DNA from: Escherichia phage vB_EcoM-LTH01
Reading direction: 5' to 3' (one strand)
Sequence record: PP430345
DNA: 64,000 nucleotides
A program made the translations under genes and the position numbers. The notes beneath the pieces were generated by a model. It made no database searches. It was not told the DNA's origin and saw only the letters and a list, made by a program, of their open reading frames with translations. Numbering within the stretch: position 1 is the first letter of the stretch; the number at the start of each line of letters is the position of its first letter. Below are positions 1 to 28,851 of this stretch, in pieces.

Positions 1-2
1 GA

Positions 3-164
3 TCAACGTCCTACATGAAGGCAGAGCACATTATTCGTATTCTTCCACTCGACCAGTTCGATGAAGAAGAAAAGAAAAAGGATAAACTTGTTTCCGATTA
101 TCGTGAAAAAGAACTTAAATTAAGACTTGACTTGTTGGAACAAGCTGGTGTAGACTATATCTAA
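3..164 (+). CDS. 3' end of a hypothetical protein (start lies upstream of the window)
   Basis: Frame is open from the window edge to TAA 162-164 (..LRLDLLEQAGVDYI*). Co-directional with the following gene train. Confidence 0.4.
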   Translation, partial: STSYMKAEHIIRILPLDQFDEEEKKKDKLVSDYREKELKLRLDLLEQAGVDYI

Positions 165-187
165 CTTGAAACGAAGAGGATAATATA

Positions 188-454
188 ATGTCAGAAAAAA
201 CTTTAGTTGGTATTGAAAAAGCTTTCATCGAATCTTTTGATGGGTGGGATGAAATTGATTGTGGGGTGATGTATTTTTACGACGTTGTGTTAAAAGAAGA
301 ATATAAGCATCTCGTACCAGAAGGAACTGCCTCTGTAGGTATGGCTGTTAGTTCGACTGAGAGCTATGTCCAATTTAATTTCTTCGACAAGGACGACAAA
401 GCTACAACAAAAGCTTTCGAGATTAATCTTACTTTAGGTAAAGAAAAGTTATAG
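188..454 (+). CDS. hypothetical protein (88 aa)
   Basis: ORF track. GAGGA SD upstream of the ATG. No recognisable motif. Confidence 0.6.
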   Translation: MSEKTLVGIEKAFIESFDGWDEIDCGVMYFYDVVLKEEYKHLVPEGTASVGMAVSSTESYVQFNFFDKDDKATTKAFEINLTLGKEKL

Positions 455-475
455 ACTACCGAGGGGAATAAATAA

Positions 476-733
476 ATGAAATTTTACTCAGCAAAACATA
501 AATTTAGCGGTGAATTTGTTTCATTTTGGCAGACTGCCGACGATGATGGTTTTGTACATACAAAATTAAGTCTTTCTAATAACGAAAGGGACACACCTTT
601 TGTGACCTCGTTAGAACAGGTAGCCAAACTGATCAAAGGTAATCTTAACAATGATTGGTCTATTATTGTATACGATGAGCTTAAGGAAGCTGTTGAAAAT
701 TCAATGCTTGAAATCGTAGTAATTGATATCTGA
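476..733 (+). CDS. hypothetical protein (85 aa)
   Basis: ORF track. GAGGGG SD upstream. Confidence 0.6.
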   Translation: MKFYSAKHKFSGEFVSFWQTADDDGFVHTKLSLSNNERDTPFVTSLEQVAKLIKGNLNNDWSIIVYDELKEAVENSMLEIVVIDI

Positions 734-915
734 TGAAAGTCAAAATCTTAGAATCAAAGACCAAACTGCTTGAGCAACTTAAGTATTACGGTGTCCAAAA
801 AGATTCAATTCTTTTCGTGACAAAAGAAAGCGCGTCTGGTACTATTATTGCGAATAAGGGCAAGGGCTATCAATTTATGCTCTTGAAAGATGAATACGAA
901 ATAGTTGAAGAATAG
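733..915 (+). CDS. hypothetical protein (60 aa)
   Basis: ATGA stop/start overlap with the upstream ORF suggests translational coupling. Confidence 0.55.
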   Translation: MKVKILESKTKLLEQLKYYGVQKDSILFVTKESASGTIIANKGKGYQFMLLKDEYEIVEE

Positions 916-923
916 GAGTCACC

Positions 924-1160
924 ATGTGGCCTTTTAAAAAGAAAGAAACTGAAGAAAACAAACCAAGTTGTAAACATGATTTTGTCATTACTCAATGTAA
1001 TCAAGTTACAAAGGTAATGTCTCGCTTCTACGATACAGAAGAGATCAAGACAACAGTTGTGTCACGTATTTGTCGGCAATGCCTTGTACAAGAGGCTCAC
1101 ACTGTTCCAGGTCACATTGATTATTCTAAAGCTTTAAATATTTTTGGAGGTACTCGATGA
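924..1160 (+). CDS. hypothetical Cys-containing protein (78 aa), possible zinc ribbon
   Basis: AGGAG SD. Cysteine pairs at CKH..C and CRQC. Confidence 0.55.
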   Translation: MWPFKKKETEENKPSCKHDFVITQCNQVTKVMSRFYDTEEIKTTVVSRICRQCLVQEAHTVPGHIDYSKALNIFGGTR

Positions 1161-1543
1161 GTTTATCAAAAAATAGAAAAGAGTTTAATGAATTTATTGA
1201 CAGCTTGGCAGGAAAGCCTTATATTAATGCCATCGTCTCTAAATATCCTTTGGCGCATCTGACCTTTGTTCCAGAAAAGCGATTGTACCAACTGGAAGAG
1301 GATGAAGTATTTTGCTGTACGTGCGGTTGTGGTGAGGTAAAACCTATTATGGTCCCTTACCCAACATTGAGTGTTGTATCACATACCGACGGACTGGAGG
1401 AGGCAGTAATCCACGGTTTTTGGGTATCACCTTGTAAACAAAAAAGTTCTTTTGATGATGAAGGTATTGTTGAATACTATGACATTGAAGTATTCAATGA
1501 TAAAACTGGTGAAATTGTTAAAGTGGAGATCAATTACGAATGA
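1157..1543 (+). CDS. hypothetical protein (128 aa)
   Basis: ATGA overlap with the upstream ORF. Contains a CCTCGCG cysteine cluster. Confidence 0.6.
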   Translation: MSLSKNRKEFNEFIDSLAGKPYINAIVSKYPLAHLTFVPEKRLYQLEEDEVFCCTCGCGEVKPIMVPYPTLSVVSHTDGLEEAVIHGFWVSPCKQKSSFDDEGIVEYYDIEVFNDKTGEIVKVEINYE

Positions 1544-1857
1544 AAATTGTATGGGGTTTTACTAAAATAATCTTTATGATCCTGTGCCTTGCTGTACTAA
1601 ACCCACATCGTTTACTGCTGGCCTTGATTCACCTTTTAGCTGCAATATTTAGTTTTATCGCTTGGCGACTAGAAGACCTCGCGGGCTTTATGGGGAAGTG
1701 CGTTAAGAAAGGCATGAAGAAATTCTGGCTTTTTGGTGAGAAGTTATTATCTGAGCCTTTACATAAGGAAATCGAAAAGCTGGATATTATTTTGAAGGCC
1801 GCAGAAAAGAAACTCAATCCGAATAATGTTGACAAGGAAAAGGATGATGGTGTATAA
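1540..1857 (+). CDS. small membrane protein (105 aa, 2 TM)
   Basis: ATGA overlap. Hydrophobic helices IIFMILCLAVL and LLALIHLLAAIFSFIAW are followed by a Lys/Glu-rich tail. Confidence 0.55.
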   Translation: MKIVWGFTKIIFMILCLAVLNPHRLLLALIHLLAAIFSFIAWRLEDLAGFMGKCVKKGMKKFWLFGEKLLSEPLHKEIEKLDIILKAAEKKLNPNNVDKEKDDGV

Positions 1858-2050
1858 AGTATTCTGCGAATGGGATATTGGTCAAGAAGGTATTGCATTT
1901 GTTTCAGAAAAGGCAGCACTCAATTGGATAGAGGGTCAAAAAGATATTCTTCTGTCTGACATTGATGAGACTATAAAAAGTCTTATGAAGCAACGTCTTT
2001 TAGTTATTGAGCCACTAATTGTTATTGATGAAAAAGGAGAAAGAGTATGA
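1844..2050 (+). CDS. hypothetical protein (68 aa)
   Basis: Track ORF is 1826..2050. ATG 1844 follows AAGGAAAAGG and is the better-placed start. Confidence 0.5.
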   Translation: MMVYKVFCEWDIGQEGIAFVSEKAALNWIEGQKDILLSDIDETIKSLMKQRLLVIEPLIVIDEKGERV

Positions 2051-2655
2051 TCAAGAAGTTTGTTGCTTGGGTAAAATCGCTGTTTATTCCTCTGGAAGTA
2101 GAAACTGCGGCGATCGACAAGTATATTGCAAAGCAGGCCGAACAGCGTAAGGAGACTGAAAGCGTTAAATTCGGCCCAGTTGAAACACGCGATCTGGAAG
2201 AACCATTAAAAGAAAATGAGGTATTGGTTGGGGTAAACATCAAAGATAAGACGATGAAGGTTGTTGATATCTCTGTTGAACGACCAAAATCACAGGCTAC
2301 GCCGCCGAAACCGTTGGATGAACAACTGAAGGGTGTTGAATTACCGTCCTATGCTCAAGGTAAGAAATTACCACCGAAGGCAAAGCGACAGTATATTGAT
2401 CAGGCCCGTCGGGCAGCACCACGTAAGATGAGCGACTCTCCAAATGGGTATGGAACTAGCCAGGTTGATCCTCAGGTGGCAGCTTTAGGTGGTGTGGCAA
2501 CGTATACTGCTGTAATGTCCTCCAGTGAAGATCGTACAAGTAGTTCAAGTTCTCACTGTTCTTCAAGTCGGTCAAGTTCGTATGATAGCTCATCATCGTA
2601 TGATAGTTATTCTTCTGATAGTAGCAGCAGTAGTTCTTCAAGCAGTTGTGATTGA
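2047..2655 (+). CDS. hypothetical protein with poly-Ser C-terminus (202 aa)
   Basis: ATGA overlap. The last ~45 residues are almost pure Ser (SSSSHCSSSRSSSYDSSSSYDSYSSDSSSSSSSSSCD). Confidence 0.6.
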   Translation: MIKKFVAWVKSLFIPLEVETAAIDKYIAKQAEQRKETESVKFGPVETRDLEEPLKENEVLVGVNIKDKTMKVVDISVERPKSQATPPKPLDEQLKGVELPSYAQGKKLPPKAKRQYIDQARRAAPRKMSDSPNGYGTSQVDPQVAALGGVATYTAVMSSSEDRTSSSSSHCSSSRSSSYDSSSSYDSYSSDSSSSSSSSSCD

Positions 2656-2664
2656 TATTTAAGA

Positions 2665-2684
2665 GAGGGGCCGAAAGGCTCCTC
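2665..2684 (+). terminator. stable hairpin with GAAA tetraloop after the Ser-rich gene
   Basis: GAGGGGCC-GAAA-GGCTCCTC forms 8 bp including one G.U. There is no immediate U-run, so it may be a stability or processing element rather than a terminator. Confidence 0.4.
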
Positions 2685-2722
2685 ACATCGGGAGTAAGAG
2701 TTTTAATTAGAGGAGTGATGAA

Positions 2723-3124
2723 ATGCGTAAAGTATACCCTAAGAAGCCAAATGCCACTAAAACCCCACGCTACGGTTCTGAAGAATGTCCGCGAATCACG
2801 GATGAAGAATCTCGTATCGTTAAGGAAAATTTTGCAGAAATATTTTTGTTTGGTCCCACTAATAATGATCCGTACACTCTGTTGGCTGAACGTTTAGGCT
2901 CAGATCGCAATCGAGCAAAAACTGTATACTATGCTTGGGTTTATCGACAGAAAGGTCATTATTTTCGTCATGTTACTCGGGAGCGTCAAGTTCGTTCACG
3001 TTTAGTCTGTCGTATCAAAAAGTACACAGAATTCTTAAACAATCCAGAAACTATCTATCAGATTATGTGTCGTGCAGAAGATGAGGTTGACGAACTGATT
3101 GCTAAGGGGACTATCAAACAATGA
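2723..3124 (+). CDS. hypothetical basic protein (133 aa)
   Basis: ORF track. AGAGGAG SD upstream. Confidence 0.6.
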   Translation: MRKVYPKKPNATKTPRYGSEECPRITDEESRIVKENFAEIFLFGPTNNDPYTLLAERLGSDRNRAKTVYYAWVYRQKGHYFRHVTRERQVRSRLVCRIKKYTEFLNNPETIYQIMCRAEDEVDELIAKGTIKQ

Positions 3125-3276
3125 TGATTTCTCCAGAGATTTTTGTAACGTTTTTCATTATGGTTTCTCTTGCAGGATCAAGGTTTTTACCTTTCAACGT
3201 ACTAAGTGCGACATGGTTCATACTTGGGACAATATTTGCAGTAGAGACTACAAAATATTTTGGAGGTAGCTATTGA
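3121..3276 (+). CDS. small hydrophobic protein (51 aa)
   Basis: Absent from the track because it is under 60 aa. ATG 3121 overlaps the upstream TGA. Product MMISPEIFVTFFIMVSLAGSRF..WFILGTIFAV.. looks like 2 TM helices. Confidence 0.35.
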   Translation: MMISPEIFVTFFIMVSLAGSRFLPFNVLSATWFILGTIFAVETTKYFGGSY

Positions 3277-3572
3277 AAAGGTTAATCATTTTATGTATAC
3301 TTCTTCTTGTTGGTTGCGGAGAGGGTGAAGATGAGCAGACAAAGCGATACAAAAATCTACCTTCTCTGATGCCAACAGAGGTTAAGGAGTTACACGAATT
3401 TTGCAAGAAGCAACACAATTATTACAACAGTTATGCGGTTGTTGTTGATGGTGAAGCAAAATCTGTAATTTGCAAGTTCAAAGATAGTGAACGTGAAAAA
3501 GGTATCTCCTCAGGTTATACGTGGGATGCTCAAAGTTTAAGAGATAAAATGAAGGGGGTTAAAAATGAGTAA
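3273..3572 (+). CDS. lipoprotein (99 aa)
   Basis: TTG start. Signal peptide with lipobox MKRLIILCILLLVG|C. Confidence 0.6.
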   Translation: MKRLIILCILLLVGCGEGEDEQTKRYKNLPSLMPTEVKELHEFCKKQHNYYNSYAVVVDGEAKSVICKFKDSEREKGISSGYTWDAQSLRDKMKGVKNE

Positions 3573-3753
3573 TGATCTTAGTTCACATGCGGTAATGGGA
3601 CCTGGTGGTGCACTGATCGGGATCGCAATCACAAAAGGTATTGCAAATGAAATTATCATGGAGTTTCAAAAGAAAGGTCGAACGGGTTACTATGCAACCC
3701 CTGTAGAAAGTTGGATGTTAGATTACTTTAAAGACGATACCGAGGAGGCTTAA
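3565..3753 (+). CDS. hypothetical protein (62 aa)
   Basis: ORF track. Overlaps the upstream stop. Confidence 0.5.
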   Translation: MSNDLSSHAVMGPGGALIGIAITKGIANEIIMEFQKKGRTGYYATPVESWMLDYFKDDTEEA

Positions 3754-4340
3754 TGGAATACATTAGTTGGTTGTTTATCTTATCTGCGTGGGTTATCTTT
3801 GCTATCTGGTTAGCCCCTGTGATCATCGCTTTCCGTCGTAATCACAAGAACAAGGTTGTAATTTTAGCTTTGTCATTCTTTACTTCAATGATCCCTTACC
3901 CGCTTGCATTGTTTGCTTGTTGGATAGTTCTGTTGGCTTGGTCATTGTATAAAGTTTCAGTGGTCAATGATGGCTCAAAGTCTGCATATTTAGATTCTAA
4001 GTATCTTGAGTATGCAAAAGGACCGCAAGGTTTACCTGGTCCAATGGGTCCCCGTGGAGAGTCTGCTTATGAAACATACCTGAGAATTCTTCGTAAAGAA
4101 GATCCTAGCGCTATCCCACTAAATGAGAAGGATTGGCTGGATAGTTTAAAAGGGTTGGATGGTGACAAAGGTGATCGAGGGCCATCTGCATACGATCTGT
4201 ATTGCTTATCTGTATGGTCCAAAGGTGATGGTAAAGTACCTCTGTCTTTAGATGAGTGGCTAGAATCTCTCCGTGGTAAAGATGCAGACGAATTACCTTT
4301 ATCTAAAAAAGGTGTCGTTAGTCCACCAAAACGTCCTTGA
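3753..4340 (+). CDS. membrane protein: superinfection-immunity-like TM domain fused to collagen/tail-fibre repeats (195 aa)
   Basis: N-terminus WLAPVIIAFRRNHKNKVVILALSFF..WIVLLAWSL resembles the Imm_superinfect TM motif. C-terminus has a GPQGLPGPMGPRGE G-X-Y run and two 'SAY....W(L)(D/E)SL(K/R)G' tail-fibre repeats. Confidence 0.6.
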   Translation: MEYISWLFILSAWVIFAIWLAPVIIAFRRNHKNKVVILALSFFTSMIPYPLALFACWIVLLAWSLYKVSVVNDGSKSAYLDSKYLEYAKGPQGLPGPMGPRGESAYETYLRILRKEDPSAIPLNEKDWLDSLKGLDGDKGDRGPSAYDLYCLSVWSKGDGKVPLSLDEWLESLRGKDADELPLSKKGVVSPPKRP

Positions 4341-4373
4341 CAGAAAGTTAAGTGTGGGGCATAATGGCCCCAC
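4337..4373 (+). promoter_or_regulatory. sigma70-type promoter with embedded GGGG/CCCC stem-loop (PeSL-like)
   Basis: TTGACA (4337-4342, overlapping the upstream TGA stop), 17-nt spacer, CATAAT (4360-4365). Hairpin GTGGGGC-ATAATG-GCCCCAC spans 4354-4373. Confidence 0.55.
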
Positions 4374-4394
4374 TTAAACAACAGAGGAAAGAAG

Positions 4395-4775
4395 ATGAGT
4401 ATTTTTGACGGTAAAGATTATTTGGTTGCTGATTGGATTCCTATCTCTGCGACACGTAACATTCACATTTACGATGGTGTTAAGAATTTGAATACGACGA
4501 TCATCTACACAAACAGTGAAGAAGACCGTGAAATGCAAATCATGAGTGTCTTCGGTATTGATGATGAGAATAAGATTGAAAAAGGTCGTGCTCGTATTGG
4601 TATCGACATTTTCGACCTGTCTGGTGACCAAAGTGCAGATCCCGTAAACATTGACCGTTCTCGTGTGTTTGCTCACAAAGAAGAACAATTTACGGAAGAA
4701 CTTATTAAAGACTTGCAGATGATCAACACTTTGTTTGATAATGTTCATGAAAAAGTTAAGCGAGTTTATCTCTAA
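4395..4775 (+). CDS. hypothetical protein (126 aa)
   Basis: ORF track. GAGGAAAGAAG SD upstream. Confidence 0.6.
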   Translation: MSIFDGKDYLVADWIPISATRNIHIYDGVKNLNTTIIYTNSEEDREMQIMSVFGIDDENKIEKGRARIGIDIFDLSGDQSADPVNIDRSRVFAHKEEQFTEELIKDLQMINTLFDNVHEKVKRVYL

Positions 4776-4782
4776 AAGTTGT

Positions 4783-4811
4783 TTGCAATTCAAATAAGTT
4801 AGTTGTAATAT
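4783..4811 (+). promoter_or_regulatory. sigma70-type promoter upstream of ssb
   Basis: TTGCAA (4783-4788), 17-nt spacer, TAATAT (4806-4811). A strong SD AAAGGAG lies before ATG 4859. Confidence 0.55.
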
Positions 4812-4858
4812 AGTTTCTCGGCCTTAAGTGGTGTGTTCAATAGTTAAAGGAGATTTAA

Positions 4859-6034
4859 ATGTCTGAAGTTAAAGTTATCAATGCTGTATACGATGCTGTT
4901 TCCGATACCACAGTAAACATTGCAGCAGGTACGATTGAACGTATCCTCATTAAACGTATTAATGAAGATGGTAGTCCACGCGTTACCACCTTTAAAGATA
5001 AGAATACAGGTCAGCAAAAAAGCATTAACAATACCCACCGCTATGCAGTTCTTCTGAAAGAAGGTGAAGACCAGGCTTGGATTTCTTTTGGTGAAGGTGA
5101 AGTTAAAAACCTGAAGTATGAGAATCAGTTCCAGATTAAAAATCCTGAAGGTGGTTACACTGATCTTAAAGAAGGTATGAAAATTCGCTTACCTGTTGTT
5201 ATCAAGACCTACACCAAACAAGATGGTAGTCAGGGTTCTTCTACGGAAGGTAAGAAAGCACGTATCAAGATTACTGACGCATCCGGTGCTCGTGAGCCTC
5301 GTCAGCAACAGCAGCAATCAAGTGGTTCCCAACAGCAGCAAAAGCCGTCTGGTGGTGCAGCTAAGAAGATTTATGGTGATATCACATCTATCGAAGGCAA
5401 TAAGGTAGTTGTTAAGCTGGAAGACGGCACAGAAGTTACTGTAAACCTCACTGATGAACAGACGGGTCAGATTACAGAAGGTGGTCGTATTGCAGGTGTT
5501 CGTTCAGATGATGGTACGGTTACAAGCTTTAAAGCTTACGGTCCAAAAGGTGCAAATACTGGAACAGGATCACGTTCAGGTAAAGGTAAAGACGATCTGC
5601 CTATTCGTTTAGGTAATGCACTGTCTATCACAGATGCGATGTTCCCGAATGAAACGATCGCAAATCAGGGTATTGTTGTAGAGCAAGTTCTTGCAGCGAT
5701 GGACTCCATTAAAGCAAAACTTCGCGAAGAGTTTAAATCTATGGATGATTATTCTTTTGGTGCTCGTTTAGGCCAGTGTGGTATTCTTTCTGCCCGTTGG
5801 GGAAGTAATAACATTGAAACGTTTATTGCTAAAACAGAAGAGAATTTCCGATTTATCTGTCAGTTGGAAGATAAGATCCGTAACGGGGCTTCAACCCCTA
5901 AGCAAGAAGAAAAGAAATCTGAGCCGGAACCGCAGTTAACTCCGTCAGCAGAAGATTCACCTACACCTGATATCGAAGGCCATGTGAATATGTCTGTAGA
6001 TGATATGGATTTTGACGACGATATTCCGTTTTGA
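4859..6034 (+). CDS. ssb: single-stranded DNA-binding protein (391 aa)
   Basis: C-terminus ..DDMDFDDDIPF is identical to the E. coli SSB acidic tip. Has a Gln/Gly/Ser-rich linker (QQQQQSSGSQQQQKPSGG), a strong SD and biased codons. Confidence 0.8.
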   Translation: MSEVKVINAVYDAVSDTTVNIAAGTIERILIKRINEDGSPRVTTFKDKNTGQQKSINNTHRYAVLLKEGEDQAWISFGEGEVKNLKYENQFQIKNPEGGYTDLKEGMKIRLPVVIKTYTKQDGSQGSSTEGKKARIKITDASGAREPRQQQQQSSGSQQQQKPSGGAAKKIYGDITSIEGNKVVVKLEDGTEVTVNLTDEQTGQITEGGRIAGVRSDDGTVTSFKAYGPKGANTGTGSRSGKGKDDLPIRLGNALSITDAMFPNETIANQGIVVEQVLAAMDSIKAKLREEFKSMDDYSFGARLGQCGILSARWGSNNIETFIAKTEENFRFICQLEDKIRNGASTPKQEEKKSEPEPQLTPSAEDSPTPDIEGHVNMSVDDMDFDDDIPF

Positions 6035-6054
6035 TCGTAAAATTTAGATAAAAA

Positions 6055-6082
6055 TAAAGGCGCTCATTTGAGCGCCTTTTCT
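6055..6082. terminator. bidirectional rho-independent terminator at the convergence point
   Basis: GGCGCTC-ATTT-GAGCGCC (7 bp) is flanked by an A-run upstream and a T-run downstream. Sits between ssb (+) and the 411-aa gene (-). Confidence 0.7.
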
Positions 6083-7318
6083 TTATGCTGGAATAACTAT
6101 ACCTTCCAAGTTAAACTTCTGAGCTATCGTATTAGAGGCCGTAAAGTCAGCAGGGTACATAGCCCCTGTGTAACCTCTCCCTGTCCAGTAAAGATTACCA
6201 TTGCCACTAACAATTACTTTAAAAGTGTCAGCCAATGAGCCAGTCATATGGAGAATGCCGCCATCATCTATAATATCTTGATGTATGCTTTCAAAAGATG
6301 TTGCGTTGGTGGTTATAGGAAGATCTCTAAATAAGGAGTATGTGTATCCACCTTGTCCACCTGTCGATTGATAAACTCCATTAACCCTGTCAGAGATGAA
6401 TACTTGCAGTGCTGCCCTAGTGCTCACACTTGCGTTTGTATAACTGATCTGGTTAGTTAGGTAAACTTCAACTCCAGCAGGAATGCTTGCCATAGGTGCT
6501 AAATTAGGACCGAGGACGTTGGTTGAGTTTATCCCTGCTCTTGCTGCCGATCCAACTGCATCCCATGACCCATCTTCCCTCTGTGCAACAATAAGTATAA
6601 TAGATTGAGCACCTGAACCGCCAGCCGTGTTAGCCACTTGACCACGAGCACATTTTGCCCTAATATATCTTACAGAAGGGTCCCCAATAGTTGTCCAAGT
6701 TGATAATATTGTTCCGGCAGAAGTACCTGCTACTTGATCTACACCATTGTCGCCTCGGTATTTTAAAGTCCCATCAACCTCGACACGAATAGCATTATAG
6801 TTTGCAAAATACAGATATTTTGTTTTTTCACCCCAAGCTATTTGGGGTCCGTCTGGAAGAAGTCTATAAACAGTGCCGTCAGGTTGGATCGCATATGATC
6901 TAGCTATTTGTATTGCGGAAGATAAGATATTTACGCCGTCAACAATGTATGCAGATTCAGGCAAGACGTTCCAACTGTTTTGGAGAGTTGTGTCAACAGC
7001 GGGGAAGATTACGGCAGAGATATATTCATAGTGGTTATTATTTTTCTTAACCCATACACCGCCGTACAGTGTACTGTCTGTGCCTGCCTCATAAACTTCT
7101 TCGACACCCGTGTTAGTGAGTGTCCATCCAGAAGTTGCATTATTTGTGGTCCCTGTTTTACCAAGCCCGTTTAAATAATTAGATCCGGTTACATACAGAT
7201 GCCCATTAGTAAGCAAAATAAAAATATTTCCTGTACTGGTGCTTACGGCATATTTGATTGTAACGCCTACAGGCAGCGGAACACCGCCGCCGAAGTTAAT
7301 AATTGGAAAAGGGATCAT
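6083..7318 (-). CDS. putative distal tail-fibre / receptor-binding protein (411 aa)
   Basis: Immediately downstream of the 1077-aa fibre gene, with an AGGAGG SD. Gly/Thr/Asn-rich with recurring 'LY.TG..Y..G.G' strands suggesting a beta-propeller-like fold (inference). Confidence 0.5.
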   Translation of the reverse strand: MIPFPIINFGGGVPLPVGVTIKYAVSTSTGNIFILLTNGHLYVTGSNYLNGLGKTGTTNNATSGWTLTNTGVEEVYEAGTDSTLYGGVWVKKNNNHYEYISAVIFPAVDTTLQNSWNVLPESAYIVDGVNILSSAIQIARSYAIQPDGTVYRLLPDGPQIAWGEKTKYLYFANYNAIRVEVDGTLKYRGDNGVDQVAGTSAGTILSTWTTIGDPSVRYIRAKCARGQVANTAGGSGAQSIILIVAQREDGSWDAVGSAARAGINSTNVLGPNLAPMASIPAGVEVYLTNQISYTNASVSTRAALQVFISDRVNGVYQSTGGQGGYTYSLFRDLPITTNATSFESIHQDIIDDGGILHMTGSLADTFKVIVSGNGNLYWTGRGYTGAMYPADFTASNTIAQKFNLEGIVIPA

Positions 7319-27153: not shown

Positions 27154-28851
27154 TTAATAGACATTACCGGTTTGAATAGTTTGTGTAGCTCCGTCAAAAA
27201 TACAAATAGAATATATTGACAATCTCCCACCTGTGTCACTTGAAGAAGATTTATTCATCGTTGCTGTTATCCAAACCCTCCAACAACTTCCGTCGTTATT
27301 GTCTGTAACAACAAGGTGCATTGTATCTGGATACCCTACAGTCGCCGACGCATTTTCAACATAAGCAACAGTATTGCTCAATGTTGCATTACTTACCCTC
27401 CCTGTTTTTATTCTATTAATATCCGTGTAGTTAGCCGTCAAGTACCATCCAAAATTTATTTGTCTGGAAGAAGACGATGTTCCTGCGGAGAAACCTACCT
27501 TAACTTGACTAGCCAAACCTGCGGCGTCAATAATAAGCCTTACATTACCATTATTAGTACCGGGTAAAGGTAACCACATTTTTTTAGTCCCAGTAGGTGT
27601 ATTATAAACCCCAGCTAAGGTAGGAGTAGCAGCTGGACCTACATCTCCTTTATCCCCTTTGTCCCCTTTCTCGCCCTTAGGACCTTGAGGGCCTATCATA
27701 CCTGCCGGACCTTGTGGTCCAATAGCACCTGTCTCCCCCTGAGGGCCAGTCGGACCCCTGATACCCTGAGGGCCAGCTATGCCTTGAGTGCCTTGAGGGC
27801 CTGCTGGGCCGATATCTCCTTTATCTCCCTTAGGACCTTGCGGACCCTCTGGGCCAGTTGGTCCTGCATCACCCTTCACTCCCTGGGGACCTTGTGGACC
27901 TTGAGGACCAGTCGGACCTATATTACCTTGAGGGCCAGTTGGACCCGTTGCACCAATTGGACCTTGAGGACCTTCAGGGCCTGCTGGACCTTCAGCGCCT
28001 ATATCCCCTTTAGGTCCTTGTGGTCCCATAGGACCCTGAGGTCCTTCAGCACCTTGATCACCTTTGGGACCAACAGCGCCTGCAATCCCCTGAATACCCT
28101 GGGGACCCTGAGGGCCTGTTGGCCCTTGTTCCCCCCTTGCACCTTGATCACCTTTTGGACCCTGCGGTCCTTGTGGACCTGTTGGCCCTTGAGATCCTTC
28201 TAAGGCTAAGATAACCCAATCTTCATTTGTACCAGGTTCTGAGCCAATACTGGCAGAACTGGCAAAATACGTTGAACCATTGTAAGAAACCGAATCATTT
28301 TCAGAATAAGATTCCTCAGCGTCCCAAGTACCTTTGAAAGTCAAACCAGCAGGGCCAACCTCACCTTTTTCCCCTTTAGGGCCTGTAAGTCCGATCGGTC
28401 CTTGCGGACCTTCTGCTCCAGTCTCACCCTTAGGACCTTCAGGGCCAACAAGTCCCTGAGGACCTTGCTCACCTTTTTGTCCTTGTGGCCCTTGCGGACC
28501 CATAGGTCCTTGAGGGCCAACAATACCAGCTGCCCCCGCTATACCTGCGGGACCTTGTTCTCCTTTATCACCCTTAGGACCTGTAAGGCCACGGACACCT
28601 TCATCTCCTTTGGGACCAATAGGACCTTGCGGTCCAATATCCCCTTTTGGACCCTGAGGGCCAGCAGGTCCAACTGGACCTTGTTCTCCCTGAGGTCCGC
28701 GAGGACCAGTGTTACCAACATCACCTTGTTCTCCGACACGGGAAAACAAATCTTTAAACAAATACCTCTTTCTTGCATTAAGATCGTAAACGGCAGTCCC
28801 GAAATAAACCCCGCTGTGATCTCCCGTAATACCTTTAGCTGTAGAAGGCAT
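27154..28851 (-). CDS. collagen-like fibre protein (565 aa)
   Basis: Two long G-X-Y tracts ([23 protein letters not shown]..) are split by a CBM5/12-like motif ([37 protein letters not shown]). The non-collagen C-terminal globular domain is ~170 aa. Confidence 0.8.

Follow-up and report, generated by a model that had tools for sequence, protein, structure and literature searches.

What does a small phage gene do when it appears to join a membrane domain of the superinfection-immunity type to pieces of a tail fibre? The question is raised by a locus in Escherichia phage vB_EcoM-LTH01 (sequence record PP430345), a ~140-kb Escherichia coli myovirus of the genus Septuagintavirus, Vequintavirinae, from which a stretch of 64,000 nucleotides (the window) was analysed. 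The open reading frame (ORF) concerned occupies positions 3753..4340 of the + strand and is complete, running from an ATG start through 195 codons to its stop, exactly as a first-pass annotation made from the letters of the DNA had described it; the ORF and its 195 amino acid (aa) product are referred to here as the Imm-like ORF and the Imm-like protein. That annotation had regarded the gene as a unique chimera whose early-expressed product, an envelope-anchored mimic of the phage's own fibre, would block superinfection at the cell surface. The analysis presented here points elsewhere, to a non-structural, Imm-like protein of the inner membrane which would confer superinfection immunity and carry a variable periplasmic stalk presenting a conserved peptide, a reading to which we assign a probability of about one half.

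Family membership and selection

The DNA of the window is 93-96% identical to that of phages UPEC06, A73, W70, A5-4 and A7_1, and orthologs of the Imm-like ORF are present as W70_103, A54_252 and UPEC06 QUL77301. The ORF is annotated as a 'hypothetical protein' across all public records, and literature searches found no functional study of the gene or of its family. A word-indexed search with the single protein returned only proteins of more than 90% identity. In the PHROGs database, phrog_15593, whose function is listed as unknown, matches aa 6-102 with E=2e-18, and this profile match together with conserved synteny places the Imm-like protein in that family. Searches by tblastn and with profiles found orthologs in Certrevirus (CR3_038, KaOmega gp38, CR8, CR9, PBES 02 and Pectobacterium and Enterobacter phages), in Salmonella phage SSBI34 and in many metagenomic contigs. 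The genomic position is shared by Septuagintavirus, Certrevirus, SSBI34 and the metagenomic contig L013; in all loci examined, the gene lies upstream of a DUF7325 gene and a gene for a protein of ~400 aa, and is convergent with the fibre module.

The main members of this family have a common layout, in which a membrane domain is followed by a run of G-X-Y triplets with a fixed start (3-10 triplets), a variable middle and a near-invariant C-terminal peptide. The middle may hold fibre-type repeats of the form SAY...WL.SLKG, here called SAY units, whose number in the family is 0, 1 or 2, the tail being retained in all. Certrevirus orthologs have no SAY unit, yet they keep the transmembrane (TM) domain, the G-X-Y run and the tail; a single unit stands between the G-X-Y run and the tail in P0032, P0037, P0045 and P0177, with degenerate forms in P0173 and P0178, and P0182-P0185 carry other inserts in its place. 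The one-unit member P0037 occupies the matching syntenic position in a Vequintavirinae-like contig. The supposedly unique fusion is thus a conserved architecture, and on profile and synteny evidence the Imm-like protein is a member of a syntenic Vequintavirinae family, phrog_15593, rather than a one-off chimera. As relatives without any repeat keep all the other features, the core of the function cannot lie in the repeats.

The family is defined at its other end by the C-terminal peptide GKDADELPLSKKGVVSPPKRP (aa 175-195; 4275..4337, + strand), identified from the family alignment and from five alleles. In main members the tail follows the consensus G(K/R)DA(D/E)E(I/L)PLS..GV and then basic residues, and in those of the Septuagintavirus/Certrevirus type G175, D177, A178, D179, E180, P182, L183, S184, G187 and V188 are invariant; divergent members (P0131, P0173, P0178 and P0182-P0185) retain only the core (I/V/L)P(L/I)S..G and the basic residues. 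The tail motif was found in none of ~140 fibre-like matches and nowhere else in the window, and is exclusive to the TM-anchored family. This peptide, which the first-pass annotation had missed, and the membrane domain are the most conserved elements of the Imm-like protein.

Comparison of five Septuagintavirus alleles gave a ratio of nonsynonymous to synonymous divergence (dN/dS) of 0.175 for the whole ORF, with 0.09 for the membrane domain, 0.17 for the first repeat unit and 0.03 (0.027) for the second; constraint is weakest in the G-X-Y linkers (0.28-0.31, the second run having 0.31), and there are no nonsynonymous changes in the last 20 residues. Because purifying selection acts across the five alleles, the Imm-like ORF can be taken as a real and functional gene and not as a scar. 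Synonymous divergence is uneven along the gene, being 0.05-0.07 in the membrane domain and the tail and 0.3-0.46 in the middle (aa 70-175; alleles L001, L010, L011 and L012), a pattern suggestive of exchange of the stalk region among lineages.

The membrane domain and the C-terminal extension

The N-terminal ~70 aa had been described as two TM helices, and two hydrophobic stretches are indeed found on either side of a basic loop. Segment 1 (aa ~4-27; 3762..3833, + strand) is a predicted TM helix ending in P22-x-I-I-A26, as judged from hydropathy (Kyte-Doolittle means of up to 2.6 in 19-residue windows), from conservation and from an AlphaFold2 (AF2) monomer model in which residues 2-28 form a helix at a predicted local distance difference test score (pLDDT) of 78-88. 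The loop RRNHKNK (aa 28-34, net charge +4; 3834..3854, + strand), which holds R29, H31 and N33, is predicted to be cytoplasmic from its charge, the positive-inside rule and conservation. Segment 2 (aa 35-66; 3855..3950, + strand) is a predicted second TM helix by hydropathy and AF2, with a kink at the conserved Pro48; over the membrane part as a whole the monomer model places helices at residues 2-28, 34-46 and 48-72 with a pLDDT of 78-89. Two TM helices are the likeliest arrangement, but the count is not proven, since segment 2 is 32 aa long and kinked at Pro48. In the alignment of main members P22 and N33 are invariant, and A26, R29, H31, I37, P48 and L61 nearly so.

The kinship with Imm_superinfect proposed for this region was supported by profile searches. 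Pfam PF14373 (Imm_superinfect) is the best Pfam match of the Imm-like protein, aligning aa 18-43 (3804..3881, + strand) with positions 1-26 of the 42 in the profile (E=6.5e-4), although its 20.0 bits fall below the Pfam gathering score of 27.9 bits, which T4 Imm exceeds with 58.2 bits. The PHROGs family phrog_1039, 'immunity to superinfection', matches with E=2.7e-6. For almost every family member, too, PF14373 ranks first or close to first among the Pfam matches (E from 4e-6 to 0.035), and it is matched by eight of ten relatives and by seven of eight further members; several database relatives bear precomputed PF14373 calls, and the UniRef name of the PBES 02 and CR8 homologs is 'Superinfection immunity protein'. 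When a 26-sequence profile of the family membrane domain was aligned by hhalign, it matched T4 Imm at 86.5% (E=4.6e-6, 69 columns) and the PF14373-annotated bacterial protein P0027 at 95.8% (E=7.9e-9), in both cases with a 6-residue insertion around Pro48 in segment 2. Two hydrophobic segments, a short basic loop and the P-x-I-I-A-x-x-R(-x-H) motif of Imm_superinfect are all present. The membrane domain is best regarded as a divergent Imm_superinfect-like domain, one whose homology has support although it falls short of formal membership in the Pfam family.

The net charges of the N-terminus (-1), the loop (+4) and the 25 residues after segment 2 (+1), which are alike in relatives, predict by the positive-inside rule a cytoplasmic loop with both ends of the protein in the periplasm, that is, an inner-membrane anchor. 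Neither a basic n-region nor a cleavage site or lipobox is present at the N-terminus (MEYISWLF...), which shows no signal for export to the outer membrane or the cell surface.

The extension that follows contains the elements which the first-pass annotation had recognized, a short G-X-Y run and two SAY repeats in register, together with a second G-X-Y run. Collagen-like run 1, GPQGLPGPMGPRGE (aa 90-103; 4020..4061, + strand), comprises four triplets; all family members have a run here, and its G90, P91, G93 and G96 are invariant. The Pfam Collagen profile PF01391 gives the Imm-like protein 14.6 bits (E=0.028), below its threshold of 27.2 bits, which some relatives exceed (P0131 with 32.7 bits, and several with a precomputed call). 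Run 1 is followed by repeat unit 1, SAYETYLRILRKEDPSAIPLNEKDWLDSLKG (aa 104-134; 4062..4154, + strand), a 31-aa long variant of the fibre-shaft SAY...WL.SLKG unit, and run 2, GLDGDKGDRGP (aa 134-144; 4152..4184, + strand), joins this with its three triplets to repeat unit 2, SAYDLYCLSVWSKGDGKVPLSLDEWLESLRG (aa 145-175; 4185..4277, + strand), which is also of 31 aa. Between the membrane and run 1 lies SAYLDSKYLEYAKG (aa 77-90; 3981..4022, + strand), in which the alignment of alleles shows a 5-aa insertion/deletion polymorphism among Septuagintaviruses, W70 and A5-4 being without the 5 aa. This juxtamembrane stretch, which had also been passed over, is possibly a collapsed third unit of the form SAY...(W/Y)L..(L/A)KG.

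Units 1 and 2 align in register with 11 of 31 residues identical and a BLOSUM62 score of 60, against -31 +/- 12.6 in shuffled sequences, none of 20,000 shuffles matching the observed score. An exhaustive HMMER search found 295 representative proteins that match aa ~88-180 at E<=1e-3, nearly all of them of 400-2800 aa with many units and collagen, and PHROG tail families match aa 70-156, including phrog_19976 ('tail assembly protein', E=3e-8) and phrog_4440. Among 698 units taken from 142 matches the modal length is 24 aa, so that units of 31 aa are rare long variants. The closest to unit 1 are a unit of P0133 and the sole unit of family member P0032 (17/31 each), and the closest to unit 2 is a unit of P0033 (18/31). 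A recent tandem duplication was rejected as the origin of the two units, their mutual identity being just 11/31 against 17-18/31 to units elsewhere.

The repeats had been likened to those of the 1266-aa fibre of the same phage (29548..33348, - strand). The resemblance holds for the motif and the family, but the fibre units are of 24 aa rather than 31 and the two proteins are only 34-37% identical over 49-59 aa, collagen residues counted; a recent copy from the phage's own fibre was rejected on this ~35% identity, set against the 17-18/31 shared with units in unrelated proteins. The SAY units are, by these comparisons, generic fibre-shaft modules located between collagen segments and not receptor-binding tips, and they are read as stalk modules because they are optional in the family. 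The W70 ortholog of the 1266-aa collagen-rich protein is the 129-kDa W70_131, annotated 'virion structural protein', which has the top spectrum count (2032) in the virion (PMC11370258); the 1266-aa protein also matches Fibritin_C (E=5.5e-10). A further collagen protein of 565 aa (27154-28851, - strand; phrog_5073, W70_129 family) is reported not to be common to all Septuagintaviruses. Each of these two collagen proteins may be a tail fibre, a whisker or a head fibre. In three unrelated proteins, P0058, P0148 and P0111, a single N-terminal hydrophobic anchor occurs with SAY...WL.SLKG units, P0111 having a long C-terminal region as well; to judge from their sequences, membrane-anchored or secreted carriers of the SAY shaft unit exist outside the Imm-like family.

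Structure-based comparison of the extension gave little. AF2 predicts a helix-loop-helix at low pLDDT for each unit; searches of solved-structure sequences with the C-terminal part and with a fibre segment containing canonical units returned nothing or collagen peptides only, with no template for the SAY unit, and in a Foldseek search of BFVD with the AF2 model nothing stood out from noise but the UPEC06 ortholog. As AF2 was confident for the membrane helices only and Foldseek was uninformative, no inference was drawn from fold.

Candidate functions of the Imm-like protein

Superinfection immunity at the stage of genome entry is, in our analysis, the most likely role of the Imm-like protein. 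The Imm_superinfect-like two-segment domain would anchor it in the inner membrane, its basic loop facing the cytoplasm, whilst the C-terminal ~125 residues would project into the periplasm as a stalk, possibly trimeric, of a protein that is probably oligomeric. This stalk would be built from short G-X-Y runs and, in Septuagintavirus, two inserted helix-loop-helix fibre-shaft units. The membrane domain, like T4 Imm, would protect the infected cell at the inner membrane from the entry of later phage genomes; with T4 Imm, the DNA of a superinfecting phage stays behind in the periplasm (annotation of the T4 record; PMC7677548). The stalk would act as a spacer of variable length, the fibre-type units lengthening or stiffening it without mimicry of a receptor-binding fibre, and the conserved end peptide would be a second functional element which either binds a periplasmic partner or nucleates and registers stalk assembly. 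Candidate partners are a host envelope component, the lipoprotein encoded next to the Imm-like gene and the tail tip or tape measure of the incoming phage.

Several observations weigh against this proposal. No family member attains the PF14373 gathering score, the best being P0024 with 27.1 bits, and most match just the first 26 of the 42 profile positions, the GW-rich second half being replaced; NCBIfam and PADLOC searches with the Imm-like protein gave no significant match. To our knowledge PF14373 is a widespread small membrane domain whose function has been demonstrated in T4 Imm alone, and homology is therefore no proof of exclusion. The topology is a predicted one. The C-terminal part of the AF2 monomer has a pLDDT of 40-59, and the G-X-Y runs are very short throughout the family (3-10 triplets), so that a stable triple helix is doubtful. 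Stalk length ranges from ~20 to ~105 residues across the family, about five-fold, which disfavours a target at a fixed distance from the membrane. Finally, a search for early promoters of the CB7 type found none near or directly upstream of the Imm-like gene.

A different proposal is some other role in the envelope, such as control of lysis timing as a holin-like or antiholin-like protein, protection from lysis from without, or remodelling or tethering of the envelope, for instance at the peptidoglycan or at the flagellar basal region that related phages use; we consider such a role, with no exclusion involved, a tentative alternative of clearly lower probability. A likeness to holins has been ascribed to T4 Imm, which also affects lysis inhibition (PMC6832632); a weak match to Phage_holin_10 (E=0.037) was obtained for one relative, and PF14373 proteins are common in bacteria, without known function there. 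No holin is annotated in Septuagintavirus, the word not occurring in the paper on phage W70, which also reports that Certrevirus phages use flagella (PMC11370258). However, the predicted N-out/C-out arrangement is the opposite of that of class II holins. These are small proteins encoded beside the endolysin, whereas the Imm-like protein has 195 aa and its gene adjoins no lysis genes, neither peptidoglycan hydrolases nor spanins being neighbours. Moreover, Certrevirus has a separate 65-aa class II holin candidate beside a SleB-like gene and spanins beside the terminase gene (PMC7344957), and the sole Imm-family member of experimentally known function acts in exclusion.

The surface-acting fibre mimic of the first-pass annotation, which would mask or occupy the receptor or trap incoming fibres, now seems very improbable. 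It is true that the Imm-like protein bears two fibre-type units and G-X-Y runs, as does the 1266-aa protein so abundant in the W70 virion, and surface-acting exclusion proteins such as T5 Llp are known (PMC9586334). However, the units belong to another length class and resemble unrelated fibres at least as closely as they do the phage's own; no match to the C-terminal domain of the fibre was found in the Imm-like protein, and nothing in the ORF resembles a fibre tip. With neither signal peptide nor lipobox, and with a periplasmic part of ~125 aa beyond a predicted inner-membrane anchor, the protein would be too short to reach the surface. Receptor masking or fibre trapping is unlikely because an outer-membrane export signal is lacking, because only shaft modules are present and because orthologs without these modules, as in Certrevirus, are otherwise conserved. 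No better placed is the idea of a virion or assembly component, either a small fibre-like protein or a tail-fibre assembly factor with a hydrophobic N-terminus, which the PHROG tail matches and the position of the gene, less than 2 kb from the fibre module, might suggest. Those matches are confined to the repeat and collagen part, and the gene lies on the strand opposite to the structural module, within a + strand block of short non-structural ORFs. The W70 ortholog, W70_103, is missing from the 28 proteins identified in the W70 virion by mass spectrometry, whereas the products of the nearby W70_106 and W70_107 were detected (PMC11370258, Table 2). The Imm-like protein has no distal receptor-binding or collar domain, ending instead in a 20-aa peptide, and its membrane domain and predicted periplasmic orientation would separate it from virion assembly in the cytoplasm. 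There is equally slight reason to see an evolutionary accident, in which recombination left fibre DNA in a gene for a small membrane protein and the insert or the whole ORF is without function. Repeats coding for G-X-Y are prone to illegitimate recombination, relatives differ in how many units they have and the high synonymous divergence of the middle of the gene suggests mosaicism; yet all five sequenced relatives have kept an uninterrupted reading frame, both units are under purifying selection, and units are also seen in several divergent members that are independent of one another, in each case with the G-X-Y run on one side and the tail on the other.

A more specific version of superinfection immunity at the inner membrane, which might be called a 'stalked Imm', can be put forward as a speculation of low probability. 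A trimerising Imm-like domain would carry a collagen-like periplasmic stalk of evolvable length, lengthened here by captured fibre-shaft modules, and the end peptide DADE(I/L)PLS..GV would dock on the tail tip or tape measure of an incoming Vequintavirinae phage, or on a host periplasmic factor that such a phage needs, perhaps with the lipoprotein as the other half of a two-component, envelope-spanning exclusion system.

Of the systems with which the Imm-like protein may be compared, T4 Imm (83 aa), the founder of PF14373, is alike in its two long hydrophobic segments and short basic loop, in the P-x-(I/F)-I-A-x-x-R motif that closes segment 1 and in being encoded amid non-structural genes of a virulent E. 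coli myovirus. It differs in that segment 2 of the Imm-like protein has the 6-residue insertion and is without GW motifs, and in its hydrophilic tail of ~18 aa, in place of which the Imm-like protein has an extension of ~125 aa with G-X-Y runs, two units and the end peptide. The Certrevirus proteins CR3_038, KaOmega gp38, PBES 02 ADU18_0146 and CR8 gp039 (103-127 aa) are true orthologs with the same synteny, a TM domain 37-48% identical, a G-X-Y run at an equal place and the same C-terminal peptide; they have no SAY units, whereas the Imm-like protein has two and an extra juxtamembrane segment, and is 70-90 residues longer. Collagen fibre proteins (phrog_3904, phrog_4440 and phrog_15437, and here the 1266-aa protein) share the alternation of G-X-Y runs and helix-loop-helix units, but they are virion proteins of 400-2800 aa with many units and receptor-binding or collar ends, and they have neither the membrane domain nor the DADE(I/L)PLS tail. 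HK97 gp15 and P22 SieA are inner-membrane exclusion proteins which block genome translocation without affecting adsorption, a mode of action like that proposed here. Both belong to temperate phages and contain no modules of the collagen or fibre type, and no sequence relation to them was seen, no search aimed at it having been made. T5 Llp is likewise a phage envelope protein made after infection, and a lipoprotein gene also adjoins the Imm-like gene; however, Llp is a lipoprotein that blocks the outer-membrane receptor FhuA, whereas the Imm-like protein is no lipoprotein and is predicted to reside in the inner membrane.

Gene neighbourhood and significance

The gene upstream (3273..3572, + strand) encodes a lipoprotein of 99 aa with the signal MKRLIILCILLLVGC, the lipobox LLVGC and two further invariant cysteines, which belongs to phrog_15849 and is conserved at 38-44% identity across Vequintavirinae. 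It adjoins the Imm-like gene in ten of twelve phage loci, there being none in A7_1 and L013, and in Certrevirus the two genes overlap by ATGA; the UPEC06 annotation starts the lipoprotein later, so that the lipobox is lost. The lipoprotein has no significant similarity to named families. A faint match to EexN, an entry-exclusion lipoprotein (E=0.01, 15.7 bits against a cut-off of 33), was not used, as it is below the cut-off and mainly covers the signal and lipobox region. The lipoprotein may be a functional partner of the Imm-like protein. A 62-aa ORF (3565-3753, + strand), whose stop codon overlaps the start of the Imm-like ORF (TAATG) and which is translationally coupled to it, was rejected as a conserved partner, because the upstream gene of Certrevirus aligns with the lipoprotein at 3273-3572 instead. 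In the same block a 51-aa ORF (3121-3276, + strand) has two hydrophobic segments. These two ORFs, the lipoprotein gene and the Imm-like gene make up a small cluster, at least three members of which code for predicted envelope proteins.

Further along the + strand, downstream of the Imm-like gene, a protein of 391 aa (4859-6034; phrog_4477, function unknown, 'hypothetical' in all records) has a Gln/Ser/Gly-rich linker and then ends in ...MDFDDDIPF, the canonical C-terminal tail of bacterial single-stranded DNA-binding proteins, and its sequence makes it a likely phage member of that class. On the same strand, a protein of 202 aa (2047-2655; phrog_13005, function unknown) has an extremely Ser-rich C-terminus, ...SSSSSHCSSSRSSSYDSSSSYDSYSSDSSSSSSSSSCD.

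Just past the stop codon of the Imm-like ORF lies a G+C-rich hairpin, GTGGGGC..GCCCCAC (4354..4373), with no run of T on the + strand, and a sigma-70-like site (TTGACA-17-CATAAT, 4337-4365, 11/12) overlaps that stop codon, its -10 hexamer forming the hairpin loop. The element at 4337-4373 may drive transcription of the DUF7325 gene, affect the stability of RNA or terminate transcription on the opposite strand. Sigma-70-like sites in 1-7000 are no commoner than in shuffled sequences. In the equivalent short-ORF region of Certrevirus, sigma-70-like putative early promoters have been described and the region termed 'likely early' (PMC7344957); from the position of the gene, early expression of the Imm-like protein, as first suggested, is plausible.

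As far as we know, little is understood of the mechanism of T4 Imm, and Imm-like proteins with a module outside the membrane have so far escaped study. What appears to be new here is an Imm-like protein with a modular periplasmic stalk, an architecture which, to judge from the sequences, is unusual for such a protein. The locus also shows collagen and SAY shaft modules moving between virion fibres and non-structural envelope proteins. The shuffling of fibre-module domains is common in phages, and if the Imm-like protein should have no exclusion activity the finding reduces to ordinary domain shuffling of this kind. The family nevertheless gives experimental handles, namely the variation in stalk length, the invariant peptide of 10 residues and the often-linked lipoprotein, through which the working of superinfection immunity at the inner membrane could be put to the test; and since phage cocktails make use of Vequintavirinae, knowledge of the exclusion genes of these phages is relevant to the design of such mixtures.

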